Source: Microthyrium microscopicum
Taxonomy: Eukaryota
Length of the DNA stretch: 38,482 bases
Assembly (NCBI GenBank): GCA_010405405.1
Contig: MU004234.1
Location: forward strand, 66,671 to 105,152
Reading direction: 5' to 3'
Shown: piece by piece, positions 7,501-38,482 of the stretch
Numbering within the stretch: the stretch's first letter is position 1
How the letters are laid out: each line of letters opens with the position of its first letter
The notes under the pieces: model-generated
The model's input: the letters and a program-made list of their open reading frames with translations, nothing else
Told to the model about the DNA's origin: nothing
Database searches by the model: none
Position numbers and translations under genes: made by a program

Positions 7501-8730
7501 CTTCCGTGGCCAGGCAACTGGTTACGGGTATAGTAGCAAGATTTTTTCTTGTCCAGCATTTCGCTTACTGCCGCGCACAACAGCGTGGGAGAAAAGCCAT
7601 ACATATTCTTCATTTTGCATCAGTTTAATTGGCCGATAAGTCCAACTACACGTCTGGCACAAGGCCAATCAAATGCTGTTCGCTTACCAAAAAAAACCTA
7701 CAGATTTCATTCCCTCCCTGCTGCGTGCCAACCAAATAAAAGTCTAGGCAAAGTCTCGGCCAGCCAGCACAGAGGCCCGTATTCGCCATTGAGGCCGGCC
7801 TAGAAAGGGGTGTAGTGTACAGATTTGTCCAACCTCACCCCGTAAACAGCAACCGCATGCTTTCCCCTTGAACACAGATTCAGTCCCAACGTAGACTTGA
7901 CCGGTCATTACGAATATCGCATGCTGTTGCGGACGTCGGAAGAGCAGCGAAGCACCCTGGAGACAGGGCGAAGATGCCGTTCAAGTGCTGTTAACGAAGC
8001 AAACAACAAATCAATAGCTGCCAACGGGACAAGATTCCCCGCTGTTGGCCTGCATGCTGTAATGCGAACACCTACTTTTTGCATTACCTGCAGGCTGCAA
8101 CCCTCCATGGACTCGGTCTTAATATCGACATGCTATTATTTCTTATCGGCTGTCGCGCGAAATGCGTTAATACGTTTAAAAAGGTAGAAAAGGACCGCGT
8201 GAGCGGAATAGGGTACGTCGGGTAGTGACAGGCTTGGAGAAATCTATGCTGTCAGTGTCAGACAAAGAGATATCTGTAGAGAAAGGAGTGTATCTGCTGC
8301 GTACTACGGCTGGGCTGCAATGTACTCTGTCTCTGCCTCATGCCATCACGAGAAAATGTCAAACAGGGCAGCCAATTATATCTGGTTGATATCCGTGATT
8401 TGCCAACCCGCAGTCTGGGGAGGATTCTTGATATGCTTTAGGGGCATGCATAGGATTGCTATTCTGGTAAAGCGAAAACTTAAAATCTGGTAATCCCTGA
8501 GCTCCGCAGCTCTTCATCTTCCTAATCTAGCGTCTGATGATGGGATAGATTCTAAACATTGGTCCACTACTCTCGTTTGACACCATTCTGGGCATCTGGC
8601 CAAGGGCTGATTATGCACGACACGAACGGCATGAGATAGAAGAAAGGAATGACACACAGCTCTCTCACACCCACTTGCAACACCTGCATCGAAAGGATCA
8701 AAATAACTCTATCAGCTCATCATGCATATT

Positions 8731-11157: not shown

Positions 11158-11848
11158 ATTTTCGTAGTGCTCCAGCCTCTAGTGTTGTAGGTAATGCTTG
11201 GTTTCTGATCTTTTCCCGGACCAGCGTAGATAACAACGGAAGTGGATGTCTCGGAGCAGCCAGAAGCGGGAGTGCATTTCTAGAGTTACAGAATGTTGTT
11301 GAAATAAAGTTCGAGGCTAATGAGTCAAGGTTGGAAGGCACGACCTGGGAGACACTGCGACTGCTCCATCGCTCCTTCCCCATAAGTCATTTTACACAAT
11401 CGAAAGCTGTAGGAGAACTTCTTCTCCACAGTTCTATCACTATAAACTGTATGCCTAGATTGGCACCTTGGGGTGTAACACTATCTGAAATTCCATCGGT
11501 TACAAAAAGCGGACAACTGCCAGTCCTCGTAAAATGGGTCTCTATGGTCAGAAGACGCAGAATCCTAAAATTTCAATACGACAGATATGCAATGATTTAA
11601 TTAGGGAATCGCAAGCATGCCCAACTGACATTGTTGCTGCCTGGCCTCACCTGCTTATCTTGGGGCGTCAGCCTTGTAACTTCTAATGGCAGGATTCTGA
11701 GGGATTCAACTATCTCGCAACACCGTGCCGCAATATTTGAGCCAGAGGATAGTATAAAAGCACTATACGAACTAATTCGCATGCTATCAAATACTAAACC
11801 CCTTTTGTTTCTTGAAACCCTGCTCTACAAGTTTGAATATTTGACCAT

Positions 11849-16069: not shown

Positions 16070-16270
16070 CAGTGTTGGAACTCGAGTTAGTATAGTCGAG
16101 TACTAGTACTAGTACGGCTAGTATAGGATTATTTTAATACTAACTCAACTAGACTAGTCTAATCAAGATCTAGGACTAGTACTAGTACTATACTAGTCTA
16201 GAATTATATAATAAATACTCTACTAATACTTAAGTACTAGTACTAGTATTACTAGTATACTAATACTAGT
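16070..16270. repeat. hAT-A terminal sequence (putative TIR) and subterminal short-repeat array
   Basis: CAGTGTT terminus then many ACTAGT/CTCGAG/GTCGAG-like units. The partner TIR is not in the window; the predicted 8-bp TSD is TCGCCGAC (16062-16069). Confidence 0.7.
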
Positions 16271-17974
16271 TTTATATATAGATTAGGGTTAATATTATAG
16301 GGTTATTTTTATATTATTCAATTTGGAATTTTACGTAGATTACAATAGTGTTATTAGTTTTTTAATAGCTAGTCTTATTCTATAGTTATTATACTTTAAA
16401 CATAAAGTTATTTAATTATATTATATTTTTAAAGGTTATTTAGTTATATAGTACTTAATATTATGAATTACTTAATAATATTTTAGATTTAGGGTTCTAG
16501 ATTTATAATATATACGAAACTATAAAAATTAGAGCTAAATACACTAATAATTAGTTTAAATACTAATAATTAGAAGTTAAGAGTATAAAATAATTAAGAA
16601 AAAGAGATAAATCTTAAAAGTTTGTATAAATAACTTAATAGTAGTAGATTTTAAGATAAATATATAAATTATTATATATTTAGATTCGTTAAAGTATAAG
16701 GAAGATAGCCCTAGAGTTAGTTTTTTAATAAGTCGCTTATATACTAATATATAGTAGTATTTAAGAGTTTTTAATAAATATATTAATAAAAGTTTAAGGT
16801 TTATATTTTAATACTAGATAAATAAGGAGTATTATAGGTTATTAAAGATCTTATATATATATTAGTATTATATATATACTATAATCTAGATTTAAGATCT
16901 TATCTAAGCTTAATAAATATAAAAAATAATAATAAAGATAATAATTAATAATAATAATATTCTAAAAAGAAATTATATTTAAGACTTTAAATCTATATTA
17001 TAGTAAAGACCTTAGTAGTAGGTATATATTAGTCTAAATTATATTATATAAACATACTAAAATAGCTATATAATCTTAAATCTAAGATTATATTTAAGAT
17101 TTATAAAATAAGAATTTAAAATATATATCTTTTAAATAATTATTTTATAACTTAAATATAAGTAGCTACATAGTAGTAATATATATAAATATATATACTA
17201 AAATATTCTAGATTTTATGATCTATCTAATGCTATAGGTCTCAAAGCTTATTTAAGTCTAGTTTTAATACTATTACTAATAATACTATTTTATTTTTAAT
17301 AATTATAATTTACTTAATAAGCTAGAATAAGGGTTTTGCTATAGTATACCTAGAGTAAAAGATATAACTATTATAATTATCTATATTTTAATTTATTTTA
17401 TAGTATACTAAATACTAATACCTATATTTAAGTAATAAAATTATATATATTCTTAAAATCTTTATTTATTTATATTATATTTAATTCTTTTATTCTACTC
17501 TTTATAATATACTATTAACGTCTAATTTCTATATAAATTCTAATGCTACTAACCTTATATCCTATAAACTACTATCTAACTCTTTATTCTAATTTAAATA
17601 GTCTACTTTCGTTTAATATAAATACTTATTTTAAGTTAAAACAATATTTTTTTATTTCTTTTATTTAAATACAATTCTAACTCTACTAACGCCTAAATAA
17701 CAAATATAAACAATTTAACTCCTCTAATAATTACTTTCCTCCTCACTATTACTATTGCTATTACTACTATCCTCTTCTAGTAAATATAATAAAGACTTTT
17801 ATAGCTCTTTAATACTAGGCATTTGCTAGTTTTTTAACTAAATAATCCGTTTAGAAGTTTTAGCTAAAAGCTTATTTCTATTATTAGAAATAATATCACT
17901 ACCAATACTAAATGTACTTTTAGCACTAGCTAAAGTAGTAGGTATTATTAAGTATTTCTTAGCTAAGTAAAATA

Positions 17975-18300
17975 TGTGAGAACAGGAATACGAGTAGCGC
18001 TATTATAAAGGTATAGAAAGGATGTAATAGGACTAGTGTTAACTAGCATGTTATATTGTATATTGAATAATTGTGTGTAGAATCTCTAAAGCCTCTAGAA
18101 TTAGGGAGAATTCTAGGGCGTTAAATATACCTAAGGGAATAAAAATTATCTTAGCCTTTATTAGTAATCTATAAAGATCTAATAAAGATCTTTAATTAGA
18201 TTATAAAGATCTTTGATTAGATAATAAAGACTATAAAGAACTAATAGCTGAATAGGTTAGTTCTGAAAGAATACTAGTATTAAATCTAGTTATTCTTACA
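17975..18300 (-). repeat. Copia 3' LTR (326 bp)
   Basis: TGTGAGAA...TTCTTACA ends; direct repeat of 22983-23308; internal ATAAAGATCT tandem units at about 18171-18240. Confidence 0.95.
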
Positions 18301-18399
18301 TACTCCCTTAATGTTTATTCTATTAGAATTTAATTTATTTAAGGTGTTTTTTAACTATAGTTAGACTTGCTAACTATATCTTCTTATAATCTAGTATTT

Positions 18400-21300
18400 T
18401 TAGATTATATTATAACTAATAATATAGTTATATTTTAACTTTTCTAATAAGTTAATTTAGTAAGTAGATTTCTTACTTTCTTTATTATTTTTAGCTTTTT
18501 AGCTATTATTTATCTTCTAACTCCTAGATTAGGTGCTAGGTGATTAAATATAATAGAATTTAATCCTTTAGTAAATATATCTGCTAGCTAGTTCTTAGTA
18601 TTAATATAGTTTAATACTACTATTTTATTTTATACGTTTTCTCTTATAAAGTAATATTATATATTTATATATTTAGATCTAGCGTGGTGTTCTAGATTAT
18701 TAGCTAGTTCTATAGTAGATTTACTATCTATAAATATATTAATAGATTTATATTTAATTATGTTAATTTTATTAAGTAATTCTTTTAGAAACATTAGTTC
18801 TTTAACTATTTCTTTTAAAGTAATATATTCTGCTTCGTAGCTAGATAATACTATGGATTTCTATAGTTTACTAGACTAACTAATTACGTTATTTCCTAAT
18901 TTAAATACGTAACTAGTAGTAGATCGTCTAGAATCTAAATTACCCCTCTAATCTAAGTCTGAGAATTCTATTAGTTCTATGTTAGATTAAGTTATTTTAT
19001 ACTAGTTACTAGCTATATAAATTAGTTTATAGTTTTTAGTGTAATTTAGATATTTCTATACTTTATTTAATAATTTAAAGTGTTCTTCTAAGGGATTAGC
19101 TATAAATCTAGTATAGAAACTAATAGAATATACTATATCTAGCCTTATTTTAGTAGTTAAATAAATTAGCGCTTCTACCTATTACTAATATAGTTTTAAA
19201 TTAATTAAATTAATATTTTTATTGCTATTTTTTCTACTTTTAACACTTAGTTCTGTAAGTATAGAACAGGGCTTTAAATCCTCTTTATTAAACTATTTAA
19301 TAATATTATTTAAATATTTTTCTTGGCTTAGTTCTAGTATTCTTCTAGATCTATCTTTTTTAATTTAAATTCCTAGGAATGTATTTACTTTGCCTAAATT
19401 AGTTACTTTTAGGTCTGAACGTAATTTAGTATAAAGATTATTAATATCTTTTAAACTTAGGCTAAATAGTAATATATTGTCTATATAAATAAGAATTATA
19501 ATATTAGACTTTATATTCTTATATAAGTATAGTAAGATTATTTTAAATTTGTACTTATTTAATACCGTAGTTAGATAATTAAGCTATAGTCTAGGAGACT
19601 ATTTTAAGCTATATAGTGCTTTATTTAGCTTATATACTTTATTTTTAGTATTTTTTGTTATAAATCTAATTAGTTATTCTAGATAAATATCTTTATCTAT
19701 TTTAGTGTAAATAAATGTGTTTTTAATATCTTATTGCTATATTTCTAGATCTAGTAAATTACTTATAGAAAATAATATTCTATAAGCTTCTGCTCTATAT
19801 ATAGATATATAGGTTTCGTTGTAATCTAAACCTAGTTCTTGTGTAAATCCTTTTACTACCTATCTAGCTTTATATTTAACTAGATTATTAAGGGCGTCTA
19901 TTTTAATTTTATATACCTAGTAGCCTCTAAGAACCTTTAAATCTATAGAATTATCTACTAAATTCTAGGTCTTTTGTAGTTCTAATTTATCTACTTTAGC
20001 TTTCATAGCTTCTAACTATTTATTTTTATCTAAGCTTTTAATAGCTTAATTATATATTTTAGGTTTTTTATTTAGTAGATTACTTTTTATTATAATAAAT
20101 ACGTTATCTTCTTCTAGATTAGCTAAATCTAGGGTTGTATTATTATTAATAGCAAGTTTATTAATTATAATGCTAGCTATTTTAACTTAATTTTCTAAGT
20201 TATCTATTTTAATAACGTTAATTTGATTAATATTATTTTTTGCTACTTTGTTCTTTATAATAAAATCTATTAGCTCCTTCTTTTTATAGTTTTCTATATC
20301 GTAAAGTTCTTATTTATAGTATTTATTTTTAAATATAACTAAATCTCTAACCTATTAAGTAGATTTAGATTTAATATTATAGATTTTAAATATATTAGTG
20401 CCTAGGCTAACTAGAATTCTAAGTTTCGCCTTAGAATCTAGCTTTTTTAAACCTATACTTTTATCTTTATATAAAACTATAGATCTAAAGATTTTTAATT
20501 AATCTAATTTTGGTTTTATATTATATTTATACTTATAGGGTGTCTTATTGTCTAGGCTACTATTTGGCGTTCTATTATAAATATAAATAGCTGTTAGAGT
20601 AGCTTCTCCCTAAAAGGTTTTAGGTAGATTACTCTCTTTTAACATTATGTTTATTTTAGTAATAATTATATAGTTATAAATTTCTATTATACTATTTTGT
20701 TCGTATATATAAGGAGCACTATGTTCTTATCTAACGCCTTCTTTTTTTAGAAAGTTATTAAGCTTTCTATTTTTAAATTCTTAACCTTCGTTAGATTTAA
20801 AAGTAATTAATCTTCTTTTATTATTACTATTATTATAATAGTATTCGTTTTTAACTAAACGTTTAATTTCTACTATATTAGGATATATTTTATCCTTAGT
20901 ACGTAGTAGATATATTTCTAGATATCTAGTAGTAATGTCTATAGCTAGTAGAATATAATAGAAACTATTAAAAGTAGTTAGATTTATAGGGCCGTATAAA
21001 TTAGCTACTATCTTATCTAAGAAGTATTTTAGTTTCTCTATTATATCTTTATTTTTGTAATTAGTTATTTTACTTTTAATATATATATTATATTTACTAG
21101 AATTAAATTTACCTAGATTTGTAATAGCTATTAATTTAGCTTTATATAATAGATATAATTTTCTACTAGAAGCGTGTCTTAGTCTTTTATGCTATACTAA
21201 GGTAGATAGCGTTACTAGCTTTTTAGCTTTCTTTTTATTATTATTACTTGTAATAGAAGTAGCTGTTCTAGAAATAAAATAGTTCTCTATATCTAATTTA

Positions 21301-22760
21301 AGTAGATATAAGTTATTAACTTTAAGAGCTATTATAATAAGCTTTTTATCTTTATAAATTAGAGCTGTATTATCTTTAAATTCTATAGTAAAATTAGAAG
21401 ATAACTTACTTATAGAAATTAAATTGACGCCTAGATTAGGATAATATAAATAGTCTTTTAATTTAAATAATATTCTACTAAGTCTAACTACTATATCTCT
21501 AATTCTAGTAGCTATAATAGTGCCTGCCTTGCCCTAATTAATAGGAATATTATATGGTTTAAAATAATGAAACTATGTCTTATCTACTATTAAATGAGAA
21601 CTAGCCCCTAAATGCTTGTTCCTTAGTGTCTAAGTAATCTATAACATCTTCAACGTAAGCACCTGGTGTCTTAGGCTGAACGGTGTTAGATTCTTCGCTT
21701 TTAGTGCTTTTGTTATCTAGATCTAGATTGAAGTCTAGCTCTATTGGTGAATCTAGGTTAGAACTAGTAGTAACTAGTACCTGATCTTCTGTTCTAGCTT
21801 AAATGGGCTTAGTAGATTTAGATTTCTTACTAGAATCCTTTGAGATCTTGCTATTATTTAGCGTTTTTTAAGTTGTTAATTTAATTCTAGGCTTGCTATA
21901 ATTAATAGCAACATTAGCTTGTTCTTAACGTTTAAATAACTCTCTAGTTCCTAGAGAATATCTAGCCGTATTTAGATTATTGTTAGATCTAGATCTAGAT
22001 TCTTGTTTGTTTGTTTTGTCTTTATGATGGAACTAATAGCTTGCTAAGTAATAGCCTATCTTTTTATAGTAGTGGCACTATTTACTAGAATTAGGTTAAT
22101 TATTACGTCTAGCGCTGTATTAATTATTAGATTTATCGTTAGATCTATAATTACTATAGAGTGCTGTTTCTTTTTCTAGGTGTTCTTATCTTCTAGATTT
22201 GTCTAGTAAATTAGCAAAAAGAACTTCTAGATCTATCTCTAGCGTCTTATTATAGTAAGATTACGTAATAATATTAATAAAAGCGTTATAGCTTAGTATT
22301 AGCCTATTAAGTAACTAGGTAGCTATGACTTGTTTTAGTAATTCTATGTCTTTTGAAACGAGTTGATTAGATAACGATTTAATTTAATTTAGAAACTCTT
22401 CTATAGAGTTAAATTAGGTTAGGCTAGTATTGAAGAACTCCTTATAAATTAGGAATTTACTAGAGAAACCTTTAGAACTATATAAATTACTAAGGGCTAT
22501 CTAGGTCTCTAGAGCTATATTGTATTTACTAACTTGTAGTAAGGGTCCGTTTTCTAGGGCTAGCCTAATATAGGATAGTGTTTTAGCGTCTATCTTAGCC
22601 TGAACGACTATGTTATCTTTAATAGCCTTATCTATTTCTTTATTTACTAGAATGGCATGTATTTATAGCTTCTATATATTGTAGTTATTAGAACTACGTA
22701 ATTTCGTAATTTTGTAGGGATCTATAGCTTTGTATTAGTTAAATCTAATAGTATTAAAAA
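18400..22760 (-). pseudogene. Copia gag-pol remnant (boundaries approximate)
   Basis: Zinc knuckle CHYYKKIGYYLASY* (~22035-22077), GASSHL protease remnant (~21590-21610), LV*HKRLRH (~21175-21200), F*GEATLTA integrase, YKAR*VVKGFTQELGLDYNETY (~19809-19875), IYIDNIL (YVDD, ~19480), SDLD*RGNLDSRRSTTSY and LADIFTKGL RNase H. Confidence 0.9.
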
Positions 22761-22982
22761 TTTAAAGCTAAAATATCTATTTTTGGTAAAGATATTATTA
22801 AGTAAAGTTGGTTAAATTTACTTGTTCTTATGTAGAAGTAATGGAGTATAGTTAGAATATATGTGTAGAGATGTAGCGTTTAAAGTGTCTTATTAGCTAA
22901 ATGCTTACTAGCGTCGTTTCTTTATTCTTAAAAAGATTAGTTTTAATTAGATGCTTTTTGGCTTTGTTTTAGGCTTATAACC

Positions 22983-23308
22983 TATAAGAATAGGAATATG
23001 AGTAGTGCTATTATAAAGGTATAGAAAGGATGTAATAGGACTAGTGTTAACTAGTGTGTTATATTGTATACTAAATAATCGTGTGTAGAATCTCTAAAGC
23101 CTCTAGAATTAGGGGGAATTCTAGGGCGTTAAATATACCTAAGGGAATAAAGATTATCTTAGCCTTTGTTAGTAATCTATAAAGATCTAATAAAGATCTT
23201 TGATTAGATTATAAAGATCTTTGATTAGATAACAAAGACTATAAAGAACTAATAGCTGAATAGGTTAGTTCTGAAAGAATACTAGTATTAAATCTAGTTA
23301 TTCTTATA
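22983..23308 (-). repeat. Copia 5' LTR (326 bp)
   Basis: TATAAGAA...TTCTTATA, the RIP-converted form of TG...CA; same length as the left LTR. Confidence 0.95.
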
Positions 23309-24021
23309 AAATAAAATAGAAAATTCTATTTGTTTTATATTCTAGTATTTTAAAGGAGACATTTTAGGATTAGTAACGCGTACTTCTCTTAAATAATAAA
23401 TAAATTCCTCTTCTATAAGAGTATTATTACTAATTGGAATAAAAAACTCGTTTTGTTATTTGTTTGGAATAATAATAGGAATATTACTATTTTGAGTACC
23501 TAAAGAACTAGGATTTAGCTTTCTAAAAGCTATATAATATTTATCTTTAAATAGTTTAGATACATTACTTAGAATATCGTTGTAGTAATATAATATACTA
23601 TAAGGCGTATTTTTAAAATACTCTATTTTATATCTAAGATCTAGAATTAATACTAGAATAAAAGGTTTTAACTTTTTTACCTATTCTAGATTATAAATCT
23701 TATAAAGATAGTACTCTTCTAGCTTTTTAATACCTGCTTTTATAGCTTTAATAAAGTATTTACGCTTTAGATAATTAGCTAATAAAATAGATCTAATAGA
23801 TATTAAAAATTTAAGTATCTTTTCTTCTAATTTATTAAATAAAGAATAAATATATAAAAGCGTTTAATTTAATGTAGTATAAATTTGCCCTTATAGAGCA
23901 ACTATAGGTACATTAAAAAACTTAAGAATATCTTTTAAATTCTTTAGTGCTAACTAATTAGCTTCGTTAAAAGTAAACTTCTTTTTAAAGTTTTTATCCT
24001 TAGTATTTATAAAGACATATT

Positions 24022-24320
24022 CAGGGTTGCGAATCTAGTATGTTTTATCTAATCTAGTATCTAGTAAATCTAATCTAGTCTAGTATCTAGTTTGAGATTT
24101 TTTGGACTAAATCTAGTATTACTAGTATCTAGTTTTAGTAAAAACTAGTCTAATCTAGTACTAGTATATAATTATATTAATCTAGTAAATACTAGTATTT
24201 AATTAAGTATACTAGTCAAACTAGATAATACTTATTATAATTTAAATATATTTATTTTTAAATAATTTTTATATCATTCGATAGCTCTAGACTAGGAGAT
24301 TTCAGATCTAGTCTTAGTTT
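24022..24320. repeat. hAT-B left terminus (putative TIR) and subterminal repeats
   Basis: CAGGG start followed by a dense array of (A)ATCTAGT/ACTAGT units. Confidence 0.75.
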
Positions 24321-25008
24321 TTATTAAATACTACTAGTTATAGCGTTATAATGAGTTTTCTAAAATAACTTAATAAATTTAAAATCTTAGATTTAATTTT
24401 ATATAATACTAACTATAGTATAATAAGAAATAGTTTAAGATATATTATACTAAACTAAGTATATTCTTTAAGGCTATAGATTAGTTTTAGCTTATAACTT
24501 AATATTTATAATAGTATTTAATACTTTAAGTAAAAGAAATATATTTACTTAGATATTATATTAAATTCTAAGTAATATATAGAATATATATATAGTACTA
24601 AAGTATATATTAGCTTAATATTACTATAGACTTAATTACTAGTATAAATATTAGTTATAACTATTATATATAATAGAAAGATTTATTTATATTTTTAACT
24701 ATTTAGTAATAGTAGTTATTATTAAGTTATTATATCTAATAAAAATACTAACCTATAGTAAAAGCTACGTTCTTTAAGATAGCTTATTTAGATTTTCTTA
24801 TCTATGTCTTATAATATTATATTAAATATTAAATTTAACTTTAAATTTTAATAAATATTATATCTATAACTAAAAGATAAGATATAAAAAGATATGCATT
24901 ATAATTAGAAAAAAATACTATATTTTCTAAGCTATCTTTCCCCTTTGTTTTAGTATAAAAGAAAAACTAAATAAGTATAGACGTAAAAACAAAAACTAAA
25001 AATAAGAA

Positions 25009-26191
25009 CTACCAATCTATAATATCTAAATCTTCCTATTCAAAGTCTACTTTATCTTCTTTATTAACGGTAGTAATAAAACTAGCGCTAAGATAAGAAG
25101 TATTTCCTAATTTGGAAATATAACCGTCTAGAGCCGTTTTAAAAGCTACTGGTTTTGGCTTTGCTAAAGCCTGTTTTTCTGCCTAAAAGAAATTAGCTAA
25201 AGTATTAAAATTAATAATAATTAGTAACTTACAATATAAGCTACATACTTAATAGCGGTAGCTACTTTTTTAGCCTTTTTAATAGCCTAATCGTTTGCTA
25301 CTTTATCTAAGTGCTTTTATTGTAATTTAGCTCTAAAAGCTACTCTTTTAGCTTTTATAGCTTCTTTTTTAGTAGCTTTTTAAGCTAAATGCTTTTTAGT
25401 AAGTATACAAAGAGCTTCTTAAATAGTTAGTTCTTAGGGTCTAAAAATAGGGCTTTTAGGACGACTATTATTTATTAGATATTAATTAATAAAATAATAG
25501 AATATAACTTACCTTAGGATCCTAAATTAAAAAGTACTAGTAGAAGGAGAAGATAGTTTATAACTAGGGCTTAGAGGAGATCTATTTAATAATTAGTTAT
25601 TAATTAATTAATTAATAAAATAAAGAAATATTACTTACTTTATAGCTTCTAGATACCTTTTAAGTTGCTTTTTAAAGGCTATTTTTAGCCCTAACTAATT
25701 TGTACTTAATACTAGTATATTAATTGTTTATTAACAACCTATACTAGTCTAAATTTAGACAGTAGTAGATAGAATAGGTATAGTAGTATCTACTTAATTA
25801 TATAGGAAGGTATAATTTATATTAATCTTACGTACTTCTAAAGCATAATATATAGTAAAAGTATAATTAAGATTAATTTCTTAGTAAAGTAGGTTATTTT
25901 TAATACTAAAATAGGTATATTTAAGTTTCTATTCGTCTATAAAGAAGACTATATAGCCTAAATAAGGGCTATTAATAGCGCTATCCCTTTTTAGGATAAA
26001 GATTTCAAGATTAGATATTCTTTCGTTTAAAATTAAGGTATTTTAGTAGCCTAAAAACTCTGCTTAAAATCTTTAAGCTTTAATAAGCTACTTACGTAAG
26101 AAAGAACGCTCTATTAATATTAGTATTAGTTATATAAAGGGTTTAGTTACTTATTAATAGGTTTTATTGCATAGGGGTCTAGCTAAGGCAT
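25009..26191 (-). pseudogene. RIP-mutated multi-exon accessory gene of unknown function inside hAT-B (~327 aa reconstructed)
   Basis: Introns 25638-25582, 25512-25465 and 25232-25183 have GTAAGT donors, CTAAT-type branch sites and TAG acceptors and preserve one reading frame. Further introns at about 26154-26111 (donor ATAAGT) and 26256-26193 (5' UTR). Reads MP*LDPYAIKPIKRSFLRK...KEAIKAKRVAFRAKLQ...VDFE*EDLDIIDW-stop. Confidence 0.7.
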
Positions 26192-26376
26192 TCTAATTTA
26201 AAAAGTTAATAAAAGTAAAAAATAAAAAAATCTTTATAAAAATTAGAATAACTTACGAACTAGGCTAAGATAGGCTAAATAAAGACTATAGCTAGAAAGA
26301 GGAGGAAAAAAGGATATAAAAATAATATCTTTTAGATGCTAGCCATAGCTAGAAACTAAAAAGATAAAACTTTAAT

Positions 26377-26551
26377 AATTTAAGAAAGAAGAATTAAAAG
26401 AGAGGGAAGGGCAACTTATATAGAGATTTTAGATTAGACTAACTATATTCTAATTAGTTTAACTATATTTTAAGCTAGATTATAGTTAATCCGATCTAAA
26501 ATCTCTATATAAGGTACTCTTCTCTCTCTTTTAATTCTTCTTTCTTAAATT
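26377..26551. promoter_or_regulatory. Long inverted repeat (~79-bp arms, centre 26464), candidate symmetric bidirectional promoter
   Basis: 26377-26455 pairs with 26551-26473, with most mismatches being transitions. TATATAAG on the minus strand at 26415-26422 and on the plus strand at 26506-26513, each followed by a CT-rich tract. The repeat is directly visible; promoter function is inferred. Confidence 0.75.
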
Positions 26552-26559
26552 TTATAAAA

Positions 26560-27300
26560 AAATTACTTTTTAGAAATATATTCTAAAGTACTACTACTCT
26601 TAACTAGTTTATATATTATTATCCTTTTAGGGTATATATTCCTACTTTTTTTATAGATTTTTCTAGTAAGTTTTTTTTTTACTTTTTTTATTTTTTATCT
26701 AACTTTTTTTTTAGTTATTTAGTATATTACTAAGTAGTCTCTACTTTTTATTTCTATTTCTAGAAGTATAGAAAATACTTTTTTAAAGCTTTTTATAGCT
26801 TTTTTTAGTAAGTTTATTTTTTACTTTTTTTTACTTTTTTTTATTTTTTTACTATATTCTAATATTTAATTTAGGCTTCTTTTCTAGTAGTATTTCTACT
26901 TTATACTTTTAGTATTACTATTAGTAGTAAGTTATTTACTTATATTTTAGAAATATTTTACTAACTTTTATAATTTAGTTTATTACTATTTTTATTAGAG
27001 ATTATATTTATATTTTCTTTAATATTTCTTTATTCTATTTAAGATTTATCTTTATAGTATATACTATACGCTATTCTTTATTATTTAGCTAAAATAAAGT
27101 TTAAAAGCTATTATTATTTTATAATATAGTTTTTATTTTTTAATTTCTACTTAAGTTTTCTATAACTTAGTTATTTATTAGCTATTTTATAGACTCTTTA
27201 TTATCTTAATCTATCTTTATAGTATTCTCTAGTTTACTAGAGTTATTATATTATATCTTTCTATATTCTATATAGATTTATATTAAAAAACTAAAAAAAT
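26560..27300 (+). other. Putative spliced plus-strand unit with three introns (T-rich exons; long transposase 5' UTR, ncRNA or small hydrophobic ORF)
   Basis: GTAAGT...CTAAC/CTAAT...TAG introns at 26666-26714, 26808-26874 and 26927-26978. Confidence 0.55.
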
Positions 27301-29300
27301 AAAAAATAATAAAAAAATATTTCTTTTTTGTTTTTATTTACTTCTTACTTAGTTGTACTATTTAAGACTAGTAAAATTTGTACTATCTACTTTCGTATAT
27401 TTCTAATAGATCTATGAATTTAGAATTCCTTATCTAGCTCTAGATTTTAATCTAGAAATAAAAGAAGTACCTAGATTTATATTCTCTATTTATTATATAA
27501 AATAAGTAATATTAATAATTTAGAAATAAATAATAATAATTCTAATCTTAATCTACCTAATACTTAGCCTGCTAGCTAACTATCTAATTTAGATACTAGT
27601 ATAGGTCCTTCTAATAGTACTTCTTAAGTTACTGTTAGATTAAATAAATATAGAGGTAATAAATATAATAAATCTACTTATAGATTAAATGATAGTAGCC
27701 CTAGTGCTACTTATATCTTTAAATATGGTTTATTTACTAGAGAACTATTACCTATTAATTTTAATAAATCTAGAGAGTTTAAAATAACTTATTCTCTTTG
27801 CTTATCTAATTATGAAAGAATTGTTCCTTTTAAGGATTTTTTAACTTCTAATTTTGCTATATATTATAGAAGACATTATCCTACTATAGCTACTAGATAA
27901 GAAGAATATAATACTAAATAGACTATAGAAGACTATAATATAGAATAAGCATTAATTACTAGCTCTATTAATAATCCAAATATTTCTATTATCTCTCTAT
28001 TTACTAGAGTAGCTAGTAGTCTAGATACTAGAAAACGTATAAGATCTAGTACTAATTATGAGTTTCTATAAGAAGAAGCTCTATATTTAATTCTAGCTTT
28101 TATTATAGATAATAATCTATCTTTTAATATCTTAGATTCTTAATCTTTTAGAGACCTATTAGAATATTATAATTATAATACGCCTAAAGCTAACTATAAT
28201 AACGTTAAAAAGCTATTAGATACAACGTTTAACGACTCTCTTAAAATATTTAGATTAGAAGTTAAATAAGTAATAAAAAATAGAAATTACTTCTCTATTA
28301 CTTTAAATGCTTAGATAGCTAGTAATTAAACTACCTTTTTAGGTATAATATTAATATATATTAATAATAATACAAAATTACAATATAAGTTAATAAGATT
28401 TAAAGAGTTAACTAAAAGCTATACTAGTATTTATATTTCTTAAGTATTTAATACTTATTTAATTAATTATAGTCTAGATATTTCAAATATTATTAGTATT
28501 ACTAGAGATAATGCTAGTAATAATAATACTCTAGTAGATTAATTAAAACTTAAAGCGTTTTCTAGAGACTCTATAAGTTTTTATAATATTTGTTATACTA
28601 CTTATATTATTAATTTAGTAGCTAAAGAAGTATTAAAACGTTTTCTAGCTTCTTATGATATAGAAGTTAATTTAATAGCTTATATTAATACGCTATTAAA
28701 TTTAGAAGATAATAACGATGAAGAAGATAATATAGAAAGTAAAGATAGTACTAAGCCTTTAGGTTTAATACAAAAAGTAAGAAGAATTATTACTTCTATT
28801 AAATACGTAGGAGTTTATAAAAGATTATTTATTATTAGTCTACGTATTTACCGTCGTAATAGCGAGATTCCTATTACTACTAAGATTAATAAAGTAGCTT
28901 TAGATAATGATACTAGATAGAATTCTACTTATTATACTCTTAATTCTTTTATTCTTCTTAAAAAATGTATTTTATATATTTTTAATAATATAACTAAGCA
29001 AAAGTTTAGAAATTAATTATTATTAACTAATAGCAATTAGCACGTATTAGTTACTTTAAGAGATATATTAAATTACTTTGTTTATCCTTCTACTAAGCTA
29101 TAAGGTCAAATTTATAGTACAATTAATTAGACTTTATTATATATTTACTAATTATTTTAGTAGCTAGAAGAGAAGAAGTATTTAATAGAAAATAATTTAG
29201 ATTCTTTATCTAGTTACGAAGAAAAGAAGTTTTTTATTAAAGCTATAAATCTAGCTATTAATAAGCTAGATAAATATTATAAAAGGAATATAACTACGTC

Positions 29301-29568
29301 TATTAGAAACGGGTCGTTCTAAGTAGGTAAAGACTATAATTATTACGGTTTAAGTAGATATATAAAAATAGAGACGAGAGTAATTGCTAGGAAGTTACTT
29401 AGACCTCTATAATCTTTCTTCTTTATTACCTAGAGCTATAAGGACTCTACTAAGCTATCTATATTTATAATAGGTCGTTATTAGTTAACCTAACTAATAA
29501 TGCTTCATTCTATGTAGACGTATCTTATTAGTAATTATCTTAAACTAAAGGTATCCTAGTTCCTAATA
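29301..29568 (-). repeat. Gypsy 3' LTR (268 bp)
   Basis: TATTAGAA...CCTAATA; direct repeat of 37761-38028. Confidence 0.95.
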
Positions 29569-30399
29569 TTATCCTCCTTCTTAAGGCTATTTATCCTAAA
29601 GAGCATATTTAAAGGTTCTAATAGATATTTCTTATGCTTATTTATAGCTTTTAACTATACTCTATTATACTAAGACTTAGGAGAGGATAAGGCTTAACTA
29701 AACGTATAGAATTAAGTTATTTATATCTTAGAGAGTCTTCTATAGCCTAGTAATATTTTTATTCTTTAGCTTTAGTATATTACTTATTTAAGATAGATAG
29801 CTCTCTATTTTTTATCTACTCTAGATAAATAGCTCTCTATTTTCTACTAGTCTTAGGCTATAATTAACTATATTAACTTAAACTTAAAGAAGTCTAGTTA
29901 TTAAGGTCTAATATATTAGTAGGATATTTAATAAGTAGTTAATAGCTCTATTAGGGTCTTAATTAGTTAATACTAGCTTTATTAGAGCTAAATTAACCTA
30001 TTTATAAATATAGCGTAGTACTACTATTTATATTTAATTAGATCTTATTAAAATACTACTAGATAATTATTCTATATATAGTATAGGTTATCTAGTTATT
30101 AAAATATATATAGTTTAACTTAATTAGTTATACTATATTAAATATACTAAGTTTATATTAGTTTAGTATAATTAGCTTTATAATAGGTTAAGTAGTTATA
30201 ACTTATATATAAAACTACTTTATAAGCCTTATTTAGCTCTAGATTAAAAGCATATTTTAACCCTATTTTATGTTAAAAAGGGTTCTTAAAAGGGTACTCC
30301 TTATATACGTATTTTAACGCTTCTTACGTCTAATTAAGAATTATTTTACGTTATTTATAATAAGGTATTTAAATCCTTACTTAAAAGTTTAGAAACTCT

Positions 30400-32190
30400 A
30401 AGGCTAAGATTATACTTTCCTATTTAGGAAGTTATAACCTCTTTAAGTACTTACTATACTATGCGCAACTTTCTTTTATTATAAGAAGCTCTTATAAGTC
30501 TTTACTAAGTACTATTACGTTAATACTTAGCTATTTTAAAAAGATAAAAAGATTTAAGTATAAAATAACCCTTCTTACTCTAAATTCTTTATTTCTTATC
30601 TTTTATACTCTAAATCTTAAGGTAAGTAGAAATTCTATAGTTTTATAAATATACGTAAAGATTACTATTACTAACTTATTTTACGTTATAGGTTCCTTTC
30701 TAGTAACTATAAATTTTCTCTTCTTAGTTATTAAGCTACTTAGCACCTTTTTAAGTCCTCTTAACCTATTTTAGTATACTTTATACCCTTCTAACCTTTA
30801 ATAACTTATCTTAACTAACCTATATACTTTTAAACCTATCTTTATTTAAAGTAAATATTAATATAAATAAGTTACTTAAAGATTCTATTAAAGGCTCTTA
30901 GGTTCTTATTAAGAATAACTTTAACTCTAGTAAGACTATAGTAACTATTCCTACTAGTAATAATATTATTACGTCCTATAATAACTAAATCTTAACTACT
31001 AATATTATAGACTTTACTAAAATAGTCTTTAAGAATAAGATAGAGTAGAAATATGCTAATAAGAATATTATAGCCTTACTTAGCTNNNNNNNNNNATTTC
31101 CTTTCTTCTTTAACTACTAAACTCTATCTTATTTCTAACTTAAAATATTATTATACTTAGTAAGTTAGTTTAAGTAAGTACTTTATTAAATGCCTTAATA
31201 TAAAGTTAACTAAGAATTATTTAGAGATAATATCTTATTCTAGCTTATTTTATATTACATTATACTAATATAGGTAAGTTATTCCTTATTAGAACCTTTA
31301 TAATAAAGCTAAGCTTATCTTAGTCTATATTATAATTAATAAAGTTATTTATACTCTTAAGAATAATTCTTAGAATAAATTATCTTATAAAGATAAGTAT
31401 ATACTTTATAGTAGTATTTAGTACGTTTATAAGTACGTAGTAACTCTTTATAAGTTATAAGTACTTATTTTAACTAATTCTAGTCTAGTTTTATATATTT
31501 AGACGCTAATTAGTTTATAGTTATATATTTAAGTAGCTAGTAACTAATTTCTTCTTATTATACTCTAGTATTACTAAGGGTAGCTTTTACGTAACCTATG
31601 CGCTTATTAACTACTATATAGGTACTAAAGCTACTTAAAAGCTAGCAAATAATAGCCTTTTAGAATTAGAGAAGCATATTATAACTTATCTAGCTCTCTT
31701 AGCTACTAATATCTAATTCTATTCTTCTAAGCGCTTTAAGCGCTATAATATACTATATTCTTAGCATTAGGACTTTTACTATATTATTAGTCCTTAAAGA
31801 CCTAACTTATCTTAGATAAATCTTTTTATATCTATAATAAGTTACTTTATATCTAACTATCCTATAGTAACTTACTAATGCTAAGAATAATCTAAGTAGC
31901 ATCTTTATAAACTCTTAAGCGCTTCTTAAGCACTATAAAGCTTATTTTAGCATTTCTAAACGCTAAAAGGTTAAGGCCTATATTAAAAAGGCTATTAAGG
32001 TCTTCTATAAGAATAATTATACTAATAAAGACTATTCTAAAGTTAAGGCTATAAGTCCTACTATAAAAAAGCGTAAGATAGGCTAGGTAGCTTCTTCTTA
32101 AGTTAAAATAAAGTTAAATAGGTTATCTTAAGTCTTTTAGAATTTAGTATTATCTATACTTAGCCTTAATTAGCTAAGTAAGGCTATTTT
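30400..32190 (+). pseudogene. Putative spliced antisense accessory gene in the Gypsy 3' region (boundaries approximate)
   Basis: Plus-strand intron-like segments 30622-30691, about 31160/31174-31224, 31274-31323 and 31816-31867. Coding-like frames at 31561-31815 and 31868-32190 are joined in phase by the last intron. Confidence 0.45.
31086..31095. other. Assembly gap (10 N)
   Basis: Run of n characters; true length unknown. Confidence 1.
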
Positions 32191-32749
32191 TTATTATATT
32201 AAGTTATTTTGTGTTTCTTAAAAATAGATTAGTTAATAGATACCCTTCTAGAACTTCCTAAAGATAGGTTTATTAATAGATACCTTTATAGAACTATTAT
32301 ATAGCTAATTTAACTTTTAGTTAGAAATTACTTATTCTTTTATATATTTTCTAATATATATTTTAATTCTATTTTATATTATAAAGAGTTCTTAAAGAAA
32401 TACCCTTTATATATATATAGAGACTTATTTTACGTATTATTTTAAGTTATTTTATATATTTATAACTTAGTAGTTTTCCTATATATTTATTATCTAGTAC
32501 TATTTTTAAGTTACTTTAAGTTAATTTATTATAATATACGTATAAGAAGATTAATTTAGATTCTAATTAGTAAAAAAATTATAAAGTAACTATCTTTCTT
32601 TTTTAAAAGCTCGTCTTAAGTCTTTTAAGTCTTCTTTAGTCTTCCTAGCTATCTTTTTAGTCTTATAGGGTTAAGATCTATTAACTTATCTATAATATTA
32701 TCTAGATATATTATTTTATATTTAACTACTCCTTTAATTATACTTATTA

Positions 32750-35700
32750 CTAGTATAATGCCTTTCTTAGCTAACTTTATATAATAGTACTTTAAAGTAG
32801 TTAAAGAAAGGTTAGCTATAAGCTTCTAGGTTAATTTAGACTCTAAGTAATCTTTTTATTTTATAAGATAGTAATATTTACTCTTTTTATCTACTATATA
32901 CTTTATTACTCTCTTTATATTATATATATCTAGGTCTTCTAGGTTTAAAGAATCCTATAGTAATATAGACTTTTATAAAAAGTAAGGGTTTAGCTTATAT
33001 AGCTTTAATAAAGAAATATAGAATATATTATAGACTTATATATTCTTTAGGAGATTAAGCTAGTAAGTATTAGTATTTATAACCTTTATAATCTTAAAAG
33101 GACCTATATACTTAATATTAAGCTTCTTCTTAACGTAAGTAGTCTAAATATTCTTTATATTAAGTAGGACTTAGTTACTAATATTTAAATAAATGTTCTT
33201 TTTTCCTTTATTATACTAGTTAGCTTAGTATAGCTATACTTTAGCTAATTTATTCCTTATTATATATTATAAAGATAGAATATAATTTACTATTCCTTTA
33301 GCGTTAGGTATAATACTTTTTAATAGCGTTTTAGCTAATTTAAAAGTATAGGAGTTTCTTCTAGTATATATAATAAAAAGAGTAACCCTAATTAATAAGT
33401 AAATACTATTATTATAGTTAAACTTAGCTAAACTAAGCTATCTTATTTAATTATTTTATTTCTAATACCTATAAATCTATAAGTAGTACTTAACTTCCTA
33501 GTTTAAGTACTTTATTTAACTATTAGTCTATAAATAGAATACTATTAAGAGCTTTCTAAGAATAGAAAGGTAATAAAGGAACGTTTTCTAGTACTTAGAA
33601 ATAAAGAAAGGTCCTTAATTAAATATAATAGTATAAAGTATACTATATAGGTATATAACCTCTTATAAGAAGATCTTAGTAAAGTCTTTTACGTCTATAT
33701 CCTTTTTTATTAAAATATAGTAAGCTATTTTAGTTAATTTATTAATAACTATTATAATAGAGTTATAGGTTTAACTATTATAAATATTTAGAGGCAAATC
33801 TATAATAAAATCTATAGTAATATCCTCTTATAGTGCTTCTAAGACTAGTAAGGCTATTAGTAACTCTTTCTAGACTTATCTAATAGATTTATTATATTAA
33901 TAGTTAAGGTAAGCCTTATAATAGTTCTTAATATTCTTCTAGATGTAGTTTTAAGTATAGTAGCGCTTAATCTTCTTAAGTATCTTCTTTAACCCTTTAT
34001 AACTATCTTCTATAGTATTATTATAGAACCTTTATAGAATTTTCTTCTTTTATAACTCTTCCTTAATAAAAATAAGATTTCTACTTATCTATTTAGCTTT
34101 ATCTAAGTTATTCTTAGCTAGAAGAAGTTTATTAATAGCTAAAATCTTACTAGAGCTTATTTTTAGATACTTCTAAGTCTTAATAAGCTTATCTTAACTT
34201 CTCTTAAGTTAGTTTATAGTAGGATACTATATATTAATACTAATATATATAATAATAAAGTCTATAAGTTTAATAGTGTTAGTTTTAGCTATAAGAGTAT
34301 TATTAAGCTATAACTTATTATAGAGTAGGTTAAGTAACGCTTCTATAGTCTTTTTCTATTCTCTTTAGCCTTCTTTAATATAGTCTAGACGTCTTAAAGG
34401 TTTATTAGCTAGATTTATTTTATCTAGGTAATGCTTAATATTAAAATTATATTCTAAGAGTAAATCTACTTACCTTATATATATTAATAATATTTTTAGT
34501 ATTATTTTAAGTAATTTAAGGTTTATATAGTCTATTAAGACCTAAAATTAATCTAGTAAGCTTTATAAGTACTTTCTAAATACTTTTAAGGAATTTATAA
34601 TTACTAAGAACTCCTATTATAAAGTCTTATAGTAACTCTCTAGTAGAGATAATTTCTAAGAATAGAATATAATAAGTTTCTATAGGCTATCCTAGCCCTT
34701 ATTACGTTATCTTTAGCTTAATATTCTATAAATTATTCTTCTAAAGGTATTAGTTTCTAACTATATAGAAAGCGTAGAGTTAAAATAAGCTAAAATTAGT
34801 ATATTTATAAAAGAATCTTTTAATTTATTAAAAGAATCTAAGGCGTCTAGTAGTAATTTAATATCTATAGACTTCTCCTATTATAGCTTTAGGCCTTTTA
34901 GGGCCTAACTTAGTTCTTTCTAAGTTAAAGCGTTTAGTAGTATAGTAATATAAAAGAATCTAGCAATAAACTAATAATAGTAATTTATAAAGCTAATAAA
35001 TTCTTTTACTTAGTATATATTACATAGTTTTAGTTAATCTAGGTATATATTAACTTATAACTAATTTATAGTAGTACTATCTAGAGTTATAACGTAACTT
35101 AGATACTTTATACTACTAGTATAAAACTTATACTTAAATAGTTTTATGTATAAATAATACTCTATAAGTTACTATAAAACTTCTTAAACGTTTTTAATAT
35201 ATTACTCCTTAGTTTTAGAGTAAATAAGAATATTATTAAAGTAAATAATATATATTACGTCTACTAAGCTTCTTAATACTTAGTTAATATATACTTAGAA
35301 GGCTATAGAAGTATTTATAAGTCTAAATAAAACTACTATATACTTAAATATCCTATATTTAGTCCTAAATATAGTCTTCTACTTATTACTATCTTTAATA
35401 CGTAAATAGTAGTAAGCTTTATATAAGTTAAGGCTAATAAAGAACTTAATGCCTTAAAGTCTATCTAAAGACTTCTTAATAAGAAGTAATACGTACTAAT
35501 CTTTAATAGTAATATTATTTAGGCCTTAGTAGTCTATATAGAGTTATAATATCCTATCTTTCTTCTTTACGAAAAAGATAAAGGCTTTAGTAAGAGATCT
35601 TAACTTCTAAATCTAACTTCTTATAAAGTAAGTATCTAAGTACTTACGTAGAATAACTAACTTAGCCTCTAAGAGGCTATAAATAAGTCTATATAGTACT

Positions 35701-37700
35701 ATAGTACCTAGCTCTAAGTTAATCTTAAGGTCTTATAAACTATATTAGGCTAGTTTAAGTATATCTTACTTACTAAAAGCTTTAATAAACTATAAATACT
35801 TACTTAGGAGCTTTTTTATAAATAAATTTAGGTCTAGTAACTTAACTAGATAATTAAATAGTTAGAATAAACTATTCTAAGCTAACTTAGAGAACTTATT
35901 AGCGTTTATAGTTCCTATTTTACTATAAAAGCTACTAAAAAGTTACTTCTATGTAAGAGTTTTATTCTTAAAGTTTAAAAAAGAATTCTACTTTTCTAAC
36001 TAGGGTATTCTTATAATAATAGAGTAATATAGAGAGTTTATAATATAAAATAACCTTATCTTAGTCTTAAGGAAGTTATTTAAGTTAACTATTATTACTA
36101 TAGCTTCTATAACTCTATAAATTTATATAGAAGTACTATTTAGGTATATTATAAGTATCTTAAAAAGAAAAGTAATATAGAGCTAAAGTCTTTTAGCTAG
36201 CTTAACGTCTATAACGTTAAAGTATAACCTATAATTAACTATAATATCTAGAGATAAGGCTTTTTAGCTCTTATTATCTCTTAGACTTCCTTATAGACAT
36301 ATTTACTTTAACTTTAGTCTTATAAAGTCTACCTTACTAGGTAAGTTATTATTCTTAGCCCTTAACGTCTTTAGAATGTATATAATAATAGTCTTATAGA
36401 GCTATTTAGCGCTAAGCTAAGCTATTTTATTAATAAGAGAAGCTACTAAGTTCTAGTCTATAACTTTATAGCCTTATCTTTCTTTTATAGCTTAGGGTAT
36501 TCTATTTTAAAGTAGAATCTACTATATTTAAAGTATTTAACTTTTTTTAGATTAGACTCTAATAGAATATCTATATTTTAAGTTATTTTAAGCGTAGCCT
36601 ATTCTACTTTATTATTCTTTAAAGAGTAAAAGGACTTTCTAGGTATTCTTAGTTCTTTTAAGTCCTTCTTATACTTATACTTATTTCCTAAGAAGCGTAA
36701 GTATTATTTTAGAAAAAGTTATTCTAAGTTTACCTTTTTAGGAATAGAATAAGCTTTAGCCTTTATAGAGCTAGAAGTTTAGTATAAGTTAGCTTTTTTA
36801 AGGGCCTTTTTAACTATAGTAGTAGTAAACTTCTTATTAAAGAGAATCTTTTTCTATATATTTTTAGGAAGGCCTTTATAGAACTAAAAGAAATAATCTT
36901 TTTAGTTATTATATCTCTATTCCTTTTATAACTTAAGGAGGTTATTATAAAGCTTTTATAAGTAGTATTAACTTAATTTAACTATCTAGGACTTCTTAAA
37001 AGTAATATATTCTTACTTTATAAAGTAGCTTAAATAGCCTAGTATATAGTCTTAGACTACTTACTATATTTTTTAGAATTCTAAGTCCTAAGACTCTTTA
37101 TAAAAGATAAGATTATCTAATCCTATCTATAATAGCTCTTTCTTAAGCTAATTATATCTATAAATATACTAGTAAAGTTATTAGTTATAAGTATTCTTCT
37201 AATAAAAGAATTTAATAAACTTCTATTTAACGTTATTAACCTAAAATATATATTTTTAAAGACTCTTTCTTTTATAAGGCTCTATCTTAAGCCTATCTTA
37301 GTTTAAAGGTCCTAAAAAGGTAAGAGCTTAGCTTAAAAGACGCTAATTAAGTCTTATTATGTTAACTTAGCTAAAGTTCTTTAACTTTTAGGTAGTTTTA
37401 AGCTTACTAGACTAAATTGTCCTAGCTTTTGCTATTAGCTTTTATATCTTAAGCTTTAGCTTCTTTTTATTAATAAGTATATTAAGTTCCTCCTTATAGC
37501 GCGTTATAAAGTTATTTTAAGTCTCTTTAGGTCTAAGTAAGTTAGAATTAGCTAGTTTAATATTAAATAAGTTTAATAGACCTCTAAATATATTAGTTTA
37601 GAGCATAATAAATACTAGTAACCCTTAGCCTAATAGTTAAGGCTACCTAAGTCTTATCTAGGTGCTAAGGTCTAAATATCTACTATTAGATATAGTTTTT
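32750..37700 (-). pseudogene. Gypsy gag-pol remnant with chromodomain (boundaries approximate)
   Basis: YFKYSRFYFKIEYP (RIP-mutated CCHC knuckle, ~36495-36540), IFFVKKKDRIL*LYIDY*GLN (~35520-35580), IIYFNNILIYS (YLDD, ~35220-35250), ITIDFIIDLP integrase (~33795-33825), YIGPFKI (~33030-33050), YLIK*KDYLESKLT*KLIANL chromodomain (~32810-32870). Confidence 0.92.
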
Positions 37701-37760
37701 AATTAGATAAAAAATAAAAATAATTTCTTTAGGTACTTAAGGATTAAAAAGTAATTACTA

Positions 37761-38028
37761 TATTAGAAATAGGTTATTCTAAGTAGGTAAAGACTATAAT
37801 TATTATAATTTAAGTAGATACGTAAAAATAAGGATAAGAGTAATTACTAGGAAGTTACTTAGACCTTTATAATCTTTTTTCTTTATTACCTAGAGCTATA
37901 AAGACTCTACTAAGCTATCTATGTTTATAATAAGTTATTATTAGTTAACCTAACTAATAACGCTTTATTCTACGTAGACGTATCCTATTAGTAGTTATCT
38001 TAAACTAGAGGTGTCCTAGTTCCTAACA
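37761..38028 (-). repeat. Gypsy 5' LTR (268 bp)
   Basis: TATTAGAA...CCTAACA; followed internally on the minus strand by TAGTAA, consistent with a RIP-mutated TGG-starting PBS. Confidence 0.95.
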
Positions 38029-38482
38029 ACGTCTTCTTAATTAACTAAAATAAAACCTTATATAATAGGAATTCTACTAGATCCTAGATATAAATTAGTA
38101 TACTTTAATACTAATTTAGGTAGTATTCTATGCTTCTATTCTAATATATTAAATAATATTAATAGGATATTTAAAGTAGAGTACGATTTAGCTAAGGAGA
38201 GATTAATTAAATTAAATTTTCTTAACTAAAATACTACTACTTTAGTACTACAACCTAGTTCTACTAATAAACTAGAGAATAATTTAGATAGGAACCTCTT
38301 TTTAGGTAATAGAGCTAGAGCTACTTTACCTAATTAGGAAAGTACTACTAAATATATTTAGTATTTTAAAGAAGAGCTTACTAATCCTAATATATACCCT
38401 CTAGAATTTTAGAAAGAAAATAGACAAAAGTAGCTAATATTATATTACTTAGTAGTAAAATAGCTAGCTATTCCTACTACTT

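Follow-up and report, generated by a model that had tools for sequence, protein, structure and literature searches.

A probable accessory gene head to head with the transposase in hAT transposons of Microthyrium microscopicum

The window, that is, the whole stretch of 38,482 nucleotides analysed here from the genome of Microthyrium microscopicum (G000), contains part of a hAT transposon, hAT-B, in which a second gene precedes the transposase and is read away from it. The element runs from 24022 to an end outside the window, in L021; its near TIR (24022..24042, plus strand), which begins CAGGGTTGCGAA, matches the far end over ~20 nt and follows the 8-bp TSD GACATATT (24014..24021), the same 8-mer lying beyond the far TIR, outside the window (L021). 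The same end is present in L022, L025, and L028, and another TIR is found in L023, L024, and L027. The hAT-B transposase is encoded on the plus strand and is RIP-broken. Its first part (~27517..29300, the start being approximate) is separated from its later part (38045..38482, continuing past the window) by an insertion with 284-nt direct repeats that resembles an LTR retrotransposon (29301..38044). The C-terminal hAT dimerization domain (Dimer_Tnp_hAT, PF05699) was found in five of six transposases scanned (best E 1e-16), the sixth being an N-terminal part only, and for hAT-B the assignment comes from the scanned sibling L026, which is 85-88% identical to the window copy. With its 8-bp TSD, its TIRs, and this Pfam domain, hAT-B belongs to the hAT superfamily.

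hAT-B is inserted in the transposase of another hAT element, hAT-A (16070..24013 in the window, minus strand, and on to ~9356 of L021), a complete element of the L041/L044 family with the TIR CAGTGTTGG and the 8-bp TSD TCGCCGAC. Since hAT-A also carries the second gene, in a copy located outside the window (G000:C5:110737, L021/L046), two two-gene elements are nested here. A further LTR-retrotransposon-like insertion with 300-nt direct repeats lies in a hAT transposase at 17968-23275. The flanking host genes encode a member of the DOPA 4,5-dioxygenase family (PF08883; 11837-12400, plus strand) and a DUF3112 membrane protein (PF11309; 12555-13706, minus strand), and 8731-11178 (minus strand) holds an 815-aa low-complexity frame without a Pfam match. 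In the subterminal DNA behind the transposase of the hAT-B family, a unit of ~140 nt is repeated (L029 ~2760-3520), and the opposite end of hAT-A contains a ~140-nt unit that is ~76% alike to it (L021 ~7790-8400). A third gene in the subterminal DNA was considered and rejected, since stops are numerous in each of the six frames and a codon rhythm is lacking.

The first-pass annotation had proposed a five-exon, non-transposase gene of ~327 aa within hAT-B, and our analysis reproduces this model: exons of 37, 472, 69, 232, and 174 nt on the minus strand sum to 984 nt (327 codons and a TAG), and the hAT element around them is complete, with TIRs and a TSD of 8 bp. The coding introns (44, 57, 48, and 50 nt) have TAG at their 3' ends and CTAAT/TTAAT-type branch motifs inside. 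Exon 1 (26155..26191) carries the start codon, which across eight copies is ATG in four and ATA in four. The donor behind it reads ATAAGT in the window and in L026 and GTAAGT in six of the seven siblings that cover it, bearing out the earlier assumption of a mutated GTAAGT. Ahead of the ATG, a probable 5' UTR intron of 64 nt (26193..26256, minus strand) can be read from the sequence, its last base 1 nt before the start codon; L040 and L051 have an intron at a similar place. Upstream of the ATG there is a T-rich stretch that resembles a signal peptide, but it is out of frame and contains stops and was therefore rejected; by eye the start of the protein has nothing that resembles a signal peptide.

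Exon 2 (25639..26110, minus strand, as are the exons that follow) encodes a conserved alpha/beta domain of ~150 aa, as judged from sequence comparison and predicted models, with no assigned family. Exon 3 (25513..25581) encodes an S/P-rich linker, in which an in-frame 3-nt deletion marks a haplotype of the second gene (four of eight covering copies). Exon 4 (25233..25464) encodes a basic, A/K-rich segment with 20 K/R in 77 aa, whose helical character is judged from composition, and exon 5 (25009..25182) encodes an acidic tail with 10 D/E in 57 aa, followed by the stop codon. In all four families of the gene found in this genome (see below), the protein has a globular N-terminal part, a basic segment, and an acidic tail with LD[IV] near its end, as the first-pass annotation had it for the window copy; the separate 69-nt S/P-rich exon that it also described is a feature of the window's family only. 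Apart from the 3-nt deletion (four copies) and a 1-nt deletion in L027, there are no exonic indels among the siblings.

The window copy contains 20 internal stops (13 TAA and 7 TAG), attributed earlier to RIP. One sibling or more has a sense codon at 10 of these positions (CAA/CAG at nine), and the other 10 are stops in all copies. Taken alone, the argument from stops being TAA or TAG only is weak: throughout the AT-rich block TGA is very rare (1.3 TGA per kb compared to 72 TAA and 46 TAG), the five wrong frames containing only two TGA altogether. Counting the terminal codon, the proposed frame has 21 stops, compared to 37, 43, 27, 28, and 57 in the other five frames. The RIP indices of the second gene (TpA/ApT 1.78; (CpA+TpG)/(ApC+GpT) 0.28) are typical of RIP, the host part of the window giving 0.69 and 1.34, and every copy of the gene that we examined is RIP-broken. 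L041/L044 (G000:C10:1312421-1317400) is much less damaged, with 4 stops in exon 2 and 8 in the transposase, and most differences between it and the other copies are G>A changes.

A DNA search of G000 with the second gene gave 20 matches, which resolve into nine elements with a whole or partial gene, and protein searches with exon 2 gave 21 places; with one extra place that has the 3' exons only, the total is 22, a count that leaves out one exon-2 row at E 0.4. These places form four families: the window's (9 places), L044-L049 (6), L050-L053 (4), and L039/L040/C13 (3). Between distant families, exon 2 is 20-40% identical; relative to L044, identity is 66-76% within its own family, 56-66% to the next, 28-32% to the window's, and 20-21% to the fourth. 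An hhalign comparison of exon 2 from the window's family with the L044/L051 group gave a probability of 98.6 (E 1e-15), and L044, L051, and L040 have introns at similar places. At all 22 places, the gene lies head to head with a hAT transposase, which settles the earlier question of whether homologues sit beside such transposases; 19 are within ~4 kb of it and three at 17-27 kb, gaps that we assume to be due to insertions. Searched from the other side, the transposase gave 32 rows, which merge into at least 25 elements. In 3 of 25 transposase places no second gene was detected (C3, C28, and C55), two being unreadable at the expected place and one being a stretch that starts inside the transposase. 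Our comparison shows that the gene has been inherited head to head with the transposase across four gene families.

Selection on the gene, another check suggested in the first-pass annotation, was assessed by transversions only, because RIP makes transitions only. Between L044 and L051, exon 2 has 13, 4, and 33 transversions at codon positions 1, 2, and 3 (pN/pS 0.23, p 7e-7), and L045 versus L050, a pair that is not independent of the former, gives a pN/pS of 0.20 (p 6e-8). Among the controls, shifted frames gave 1.67 and 3.20 and the transposase 0.47, and subterminal noncoding DNA has no three-base rhythm (e.g., 54/50/42). For L044 versus L023, pN/pS is 0.53 (p 0.001), and for L040 versus L023, from the two most distant families, it is 0.79 (p 0.27), a comparison that is saturated and of uncertain alignment. 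Judged from these substitution patterns, exon 2 was under purifying selection. The rest of the protein differs in this respect: a comparison of the two close haplotypes in the window's family yields 16 exonic transversions, 13 of them in codons of differing amino acid, all but one lying in the linker and later exons, so constraint was weak there.

Between the second gene and the transposase lies an inverted repeat (26377..26551; 76-nt arms, 89% alike). In both the window and L023, each arm, read outward, contains TATATAAG and then a CT-rich tract. A TATA-like element followed by a CT-rich tract is the usual shape of a fungal core promoter, and we infer that the repeat may represent mirror-image core promoters for the second gene and the transposase. 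All four families have an inverted repeat at this place, with arms of 76, 105, 149, and 215 nt. In a scan for TATA-like motifs, clear boxes in both arms were confined to the window's family; L040 had a single motif, and L041 and L043 had none. Beyond the repeat, the transposase leader contains three candidate introns (49, 67, and 52 nt; 26666-26978) in T-rich repeated sequence.

Gene and transposase have not always kept the same partner. The window's family contains two transposase types, with a protein identity of 52-54%, 13 transversions per 100 nt between them, and different TIRs, and two gene haplotypes, which are ~2 transversions per 100 nt apart. All four pairings of haplotype and transposase type exist (window/L022/L028/L029; L023; L025/L026; L024/L027/L030). 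Between the window and L023, which belongs to another hAT family, a common tract (24864..27375) is recognizable by the near-absence of transversions: 13 in 2,450 nt, compared to 203 in 878 nt and 86 in 650 nt in the flanks. This tract spans the gene, the inverted repeat, and the transposase leader, reaching from shortly past the stop codon of the second gene to shortly ahead of the transposase coding region. The distribution of transversions indicates that the gene and the putative shared promoter region moved as one tract of ~2.5 kb between hAT families whose transposases are ~53% identical. A second exchange is likely for L047/L048, where the neighboring transposases are 51-53% identical to that of L041 and exon 2 is only 5-6 transversions per 250 nt from L044. 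Plain gene conversion between neighboring repeats, without selection, could account for this pattern of exchange. Two observations may be added on these loci. The transposase leader has many transversions between the window and L024 and not between the window and L023, and L047 (2000-2700) follows L044 through exon 2 but differs sharply beyond it, by 47-68 transversions per 250 nt, being chimeric or truncated.

Our searches for relatives beyond these elements returned a single record. A profile of seven exon-2 copies from the window's family, the most RIP-damaged one, had no match among 1.84 billion representatives in a single search; exon 2 of L041 matched none of 437 longer candidates; and the 19-row alignment A2 matched 1 of 1,584 candidates of near length (P0002) and none of 8,000 longer proteins. 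P0002, named by NCBI as a hypothetical protein of Microthyrium microscopicum, does not differ from L044 in the half that was matched and is probably a gene call from this very genome, so it is not an independent homologue; it stems from the least damaged copy, was mis-spliced, and lacks half of exon 2 together with most of the basic exon. The 493 metagenome stretches and the plasmids that we searched likewise gave no match, and a PDB sequence search gave nothing at E 10. A single-copy host homologue, which the first-pass annotation had named as evidence against its proposal, did not appear in the protein searches of G000, nor was any host-type homologue found in the protein collections searched, although searches of this kind, relying on exact words or on damaged profiles, do not show absence. 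In agreement with the earlier failure to recognize a domain, there was no accepted Pfam or NCBIfam match: Pfam hits to NPCC in 3 of 19 rows (E 0.002) and to LGT on the mis-called N terminus of P0002 (E 0.067) were rejected as composition noise. Neither library recognized a known DNA-binding domain in the second gene, NCBIfam giving no match at all, and a TET/JBP dioxygenase domain had no match in Pfam or in PDB sequences, with queries that are RIP-damaged and models that are weak. Language-model feature searches with P0002 ranked unnamed Ascomycota clusters first (0.84-0.88), and these may be true relatives. The literature search, with Repbase, subscription journals, and the supplements of PMC12730594 outside its scope, found no report of this gene, and no such gene is described in the accessible parts of 10.1101/2025.11.13.688278, PMC13004909, and PMC8851545.

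Taken together, we consider the second gene to be, with high probability, a dedicated accessory gene of a fungal hAT clade and not a captured host gene, and it is apparently undescribed so far. More tentatively, we suggest that its product could be a nuclear regulator that keeps the element expressed. The second gene and the transposase would then be cotranscribed from the symmetric promoter, the N-terminal domain and the basic segment would bind DNA or chromatin in this shared promoter, and the acidic, hydrophobic-tipped tail would recruit host machinery, the protein thereby acting as an activator or anti-silencing factor in a role like that of VANC in VANDAL elements. A factor with its sites in its own tract would stay functional once this tract joins another transposase and other TIRs, and the swapping of the gene across transposases and TIRs favors a factor that is independent of any given one. 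Against a regulator stands the condition of the copies examined: as all are RIP-broken, the protein gave no final protection from RIP. We also speculate, with more doubt, that the gene encodes a counter-defense protein, belonging to a new family and serving a transposon in an ascomycete with active RIP, one that binds the symmetric promoter and lifts silencing by heterochromatin or methylation (or delays RIP), gene and promoter forming a portable booster module that different hAT transposases picked up via recombination; we regard this fuller version as unlikely.

The leading alternative is that transposition itself needs the protein, which would assist the transposase during assembly, target choice, or integration in the way that MURB assists MURA; its acidic tail or basic segment would then contact the transposase, or a host factor present at the target. 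With strict linkage and a shared symmetric promoter, the two proteins would be made in matched amounts. However, the same gene haplotype occurs with transposases that are only 52-54% identical, related hATs seem to manage without the gene, and some hAT transposases, Hermes and Ac among them, function on their own. Among metagenome loci with related hAT transposases (33-39% identical), none of 26 gave a match to the second gene; 14 had more than 1.2 kb upstream, and many were too short to tell. In L066, L067, L069, and L072, the common end sequence stops within ~1 kb of the transposase. With no match to the gene and short upstream ends in these relatives, the gene is not needed by all of them. 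Immediately ahead of their transposases, the same four metagenome hATs share a short end region containing small repeats, which gives them a one-gene look. The binding of MURA and MURB, reported for MuDR in the accessible text of PMC12973397, speaks for a transposase partner, which on balance we hold to be a minority reading and not a likely one.

A passenger origin, in which an ancestral hAT took up a host gene on a single occasion and the gene persisted for the benefit of the fungus and not of the element, is in our judgment improbable. hATs can carry host-beneficial genes, as ToxhAT does in the accessible accounts of it, the five or more introns look host-like, and there are relatives without the second gene; yet the searches of G000 and the protein collections gave no host-type homologue, the transposase leader has introns of the same type, and the head-to-head position and the shared inverted repeat stayed fixed through deep divergence.

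Similarly improbable is that exon 2 encodes a PD-(D/E)XK restriction-endonuclease-like fold, whether still active or not, with a role in processing or binding DNA where the element is excised. Accessory nucleases are known from other elements, such as TnsA of Tn7 and ISL2EU. Two AlphaFold2 models of exon 2 alone (pLDDT 44.7 and 53.2) share the order helix, three strands, helix, and about four strands, so that the alpha-beta-beta-beta-alpha-beta order of the fold fits both, at low pLDDT. Model 1 weakly matched EcoP15I Res (Z 5.2, rmsd 2.6, 78 aligned), EcoT38I (Z 5.1), and, many at Z 4-5, BspD6I, HamA, the FdxN excision factor, SfsA, NucC, and RPB5-type subunits, and the top Foldseek row was YaeQ (E 0.044), all of which we take to have the restriction-endonuclease-like fold. 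On the other hand, none of the five fold searches gave a match reaching E 0.001 or Z 8; with model 1 (pLDDT 45), the acetyl-CoA carboxylase central domain ranks above the nuclease-like chains (Z 7.1, rmsd 3.6, 132 aligned), itself below the noise level of Z 8, and model 2 (pLDDT 53) does not repeat the pattern, its best match being Rab3GAP (Z 5.5) with EcoT38I at only 3.5. A Glu in helix 1 and a Glu after strand 3 are conserved save for RIP-type changes, but their spacing is noncanonical: the latter is two places off the usual position, and it is followed by Lys in only two of four families.

It is highly improbable that exon 2 is a shortened gasdermin-like, membrane-damaging domain restrained by the C-terminal part, so that the element would act as an addiction or killer system among fungal nuclei or strains: the feature searches with P0002 did give gasdermin clusters below the unnamed Ascomycota ones, namely bacterial-type PF26164 (0.82 and 0.86; 52% and 25% of members carry the family) and chordate PF04598/PF17708 (0.80), and fungal gasdermins are restrained by a C-terminal fragment according to the accessible part of PMC8851545, but all feature scores are below 0.9 and thus in the lead-only range (94-123 of 256 features shared, both searches being one source), there is no Pfam, NCBIfam, or PDB sequence match, no gasdermin is among the listed rows of the five fold searches, PF04598 has no match in G000, none in 5 + 401 + 401 bacterial genomes was convincing, no protease gene was seen in the element, and the exon 2 domain has ~150 aa compared to 238 aa in the active HET-Q1 fragment of that source. 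Our preferred reading, a dedicated accessory gene whose product may regulate the element, draws on one genome and on RIP-broken copies.

hAT elements are mostly treated as one-gene transposons. A survey of fungal cut-and-paste elements lists, in its accessible part, only transposase-linked Pfam domains for hAT (PMC5751038), and the second gene that we found described for fungal hATs in the literature searched is the TET/JBP gene of rust hAT7. Another accessory gene, unrelated to TET/JBP, maintained by selection in four families, and traded among them with its promoter, would extend the hAT superfamily, a source of gene-transfer tools, by a protein family and a two-gene design, and, if it counters silencing, would offer a handle on the persistence of transposons in RIP fungi. 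It also illustrates that accessory genes can hide from databases, the sole record found being mis-spliced.

According to the accessible text of PMC12730594, TET/JBP genes have been passed passively between lineages of fungal DNA transposons, hAT7 of rusts included, and the second gene of hAT7-type transposons is proposed to counter silencing. The likeness to our case is that of a fungal hAT with a second gene that moves between lineages without its own ends. The differences are considerable: hAT7 has a 7-bp TSD, occurs in rust fungi, and in the families described there carries the TET/JBP gene upstream in the same orientation, whereas hAT-B has an 8-bp TSD and a RIP-active ascomycete host, its gene is head to head at 22 of 22 places, and no dioxygenase domain was detected. 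Mutator elements carry mudrB and vanC (PMC6446971 and PMC12973397, in their accessible parts, as for what follows), the role of VANC being anti-silencing and that of MURB being that of a transposase partner. As with vanB/vanC of VANDAL/Hiun and mudrB of MuDR, we see a lineage-specific accessory gene of a DDE transposon, with no homologue found elsewhere in the searches made here. VANDAL and MuDR, however, belong to the plant Mutator superfamily, and a VANC-like role here would follow from anatomy only. With single-gene fungal hATs (the Restless type, and the relatives in L066, L067, L069, and L072), our elements share the transposase family, short TIRs, and the 8-bp TSD; those relatives appear to end within ~1 kb upstream of the transposase, with no match to the second gene. 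Finally, ToxhAT of wheat pathogens resembles the present case, in the accessible accounts, by having hAT ends around non-transposase genes in an ascomycete, but it is one 14-kb element with a secreted gene of benefit to the host, whereas the accessory gene described here is fixed across four diverged families.
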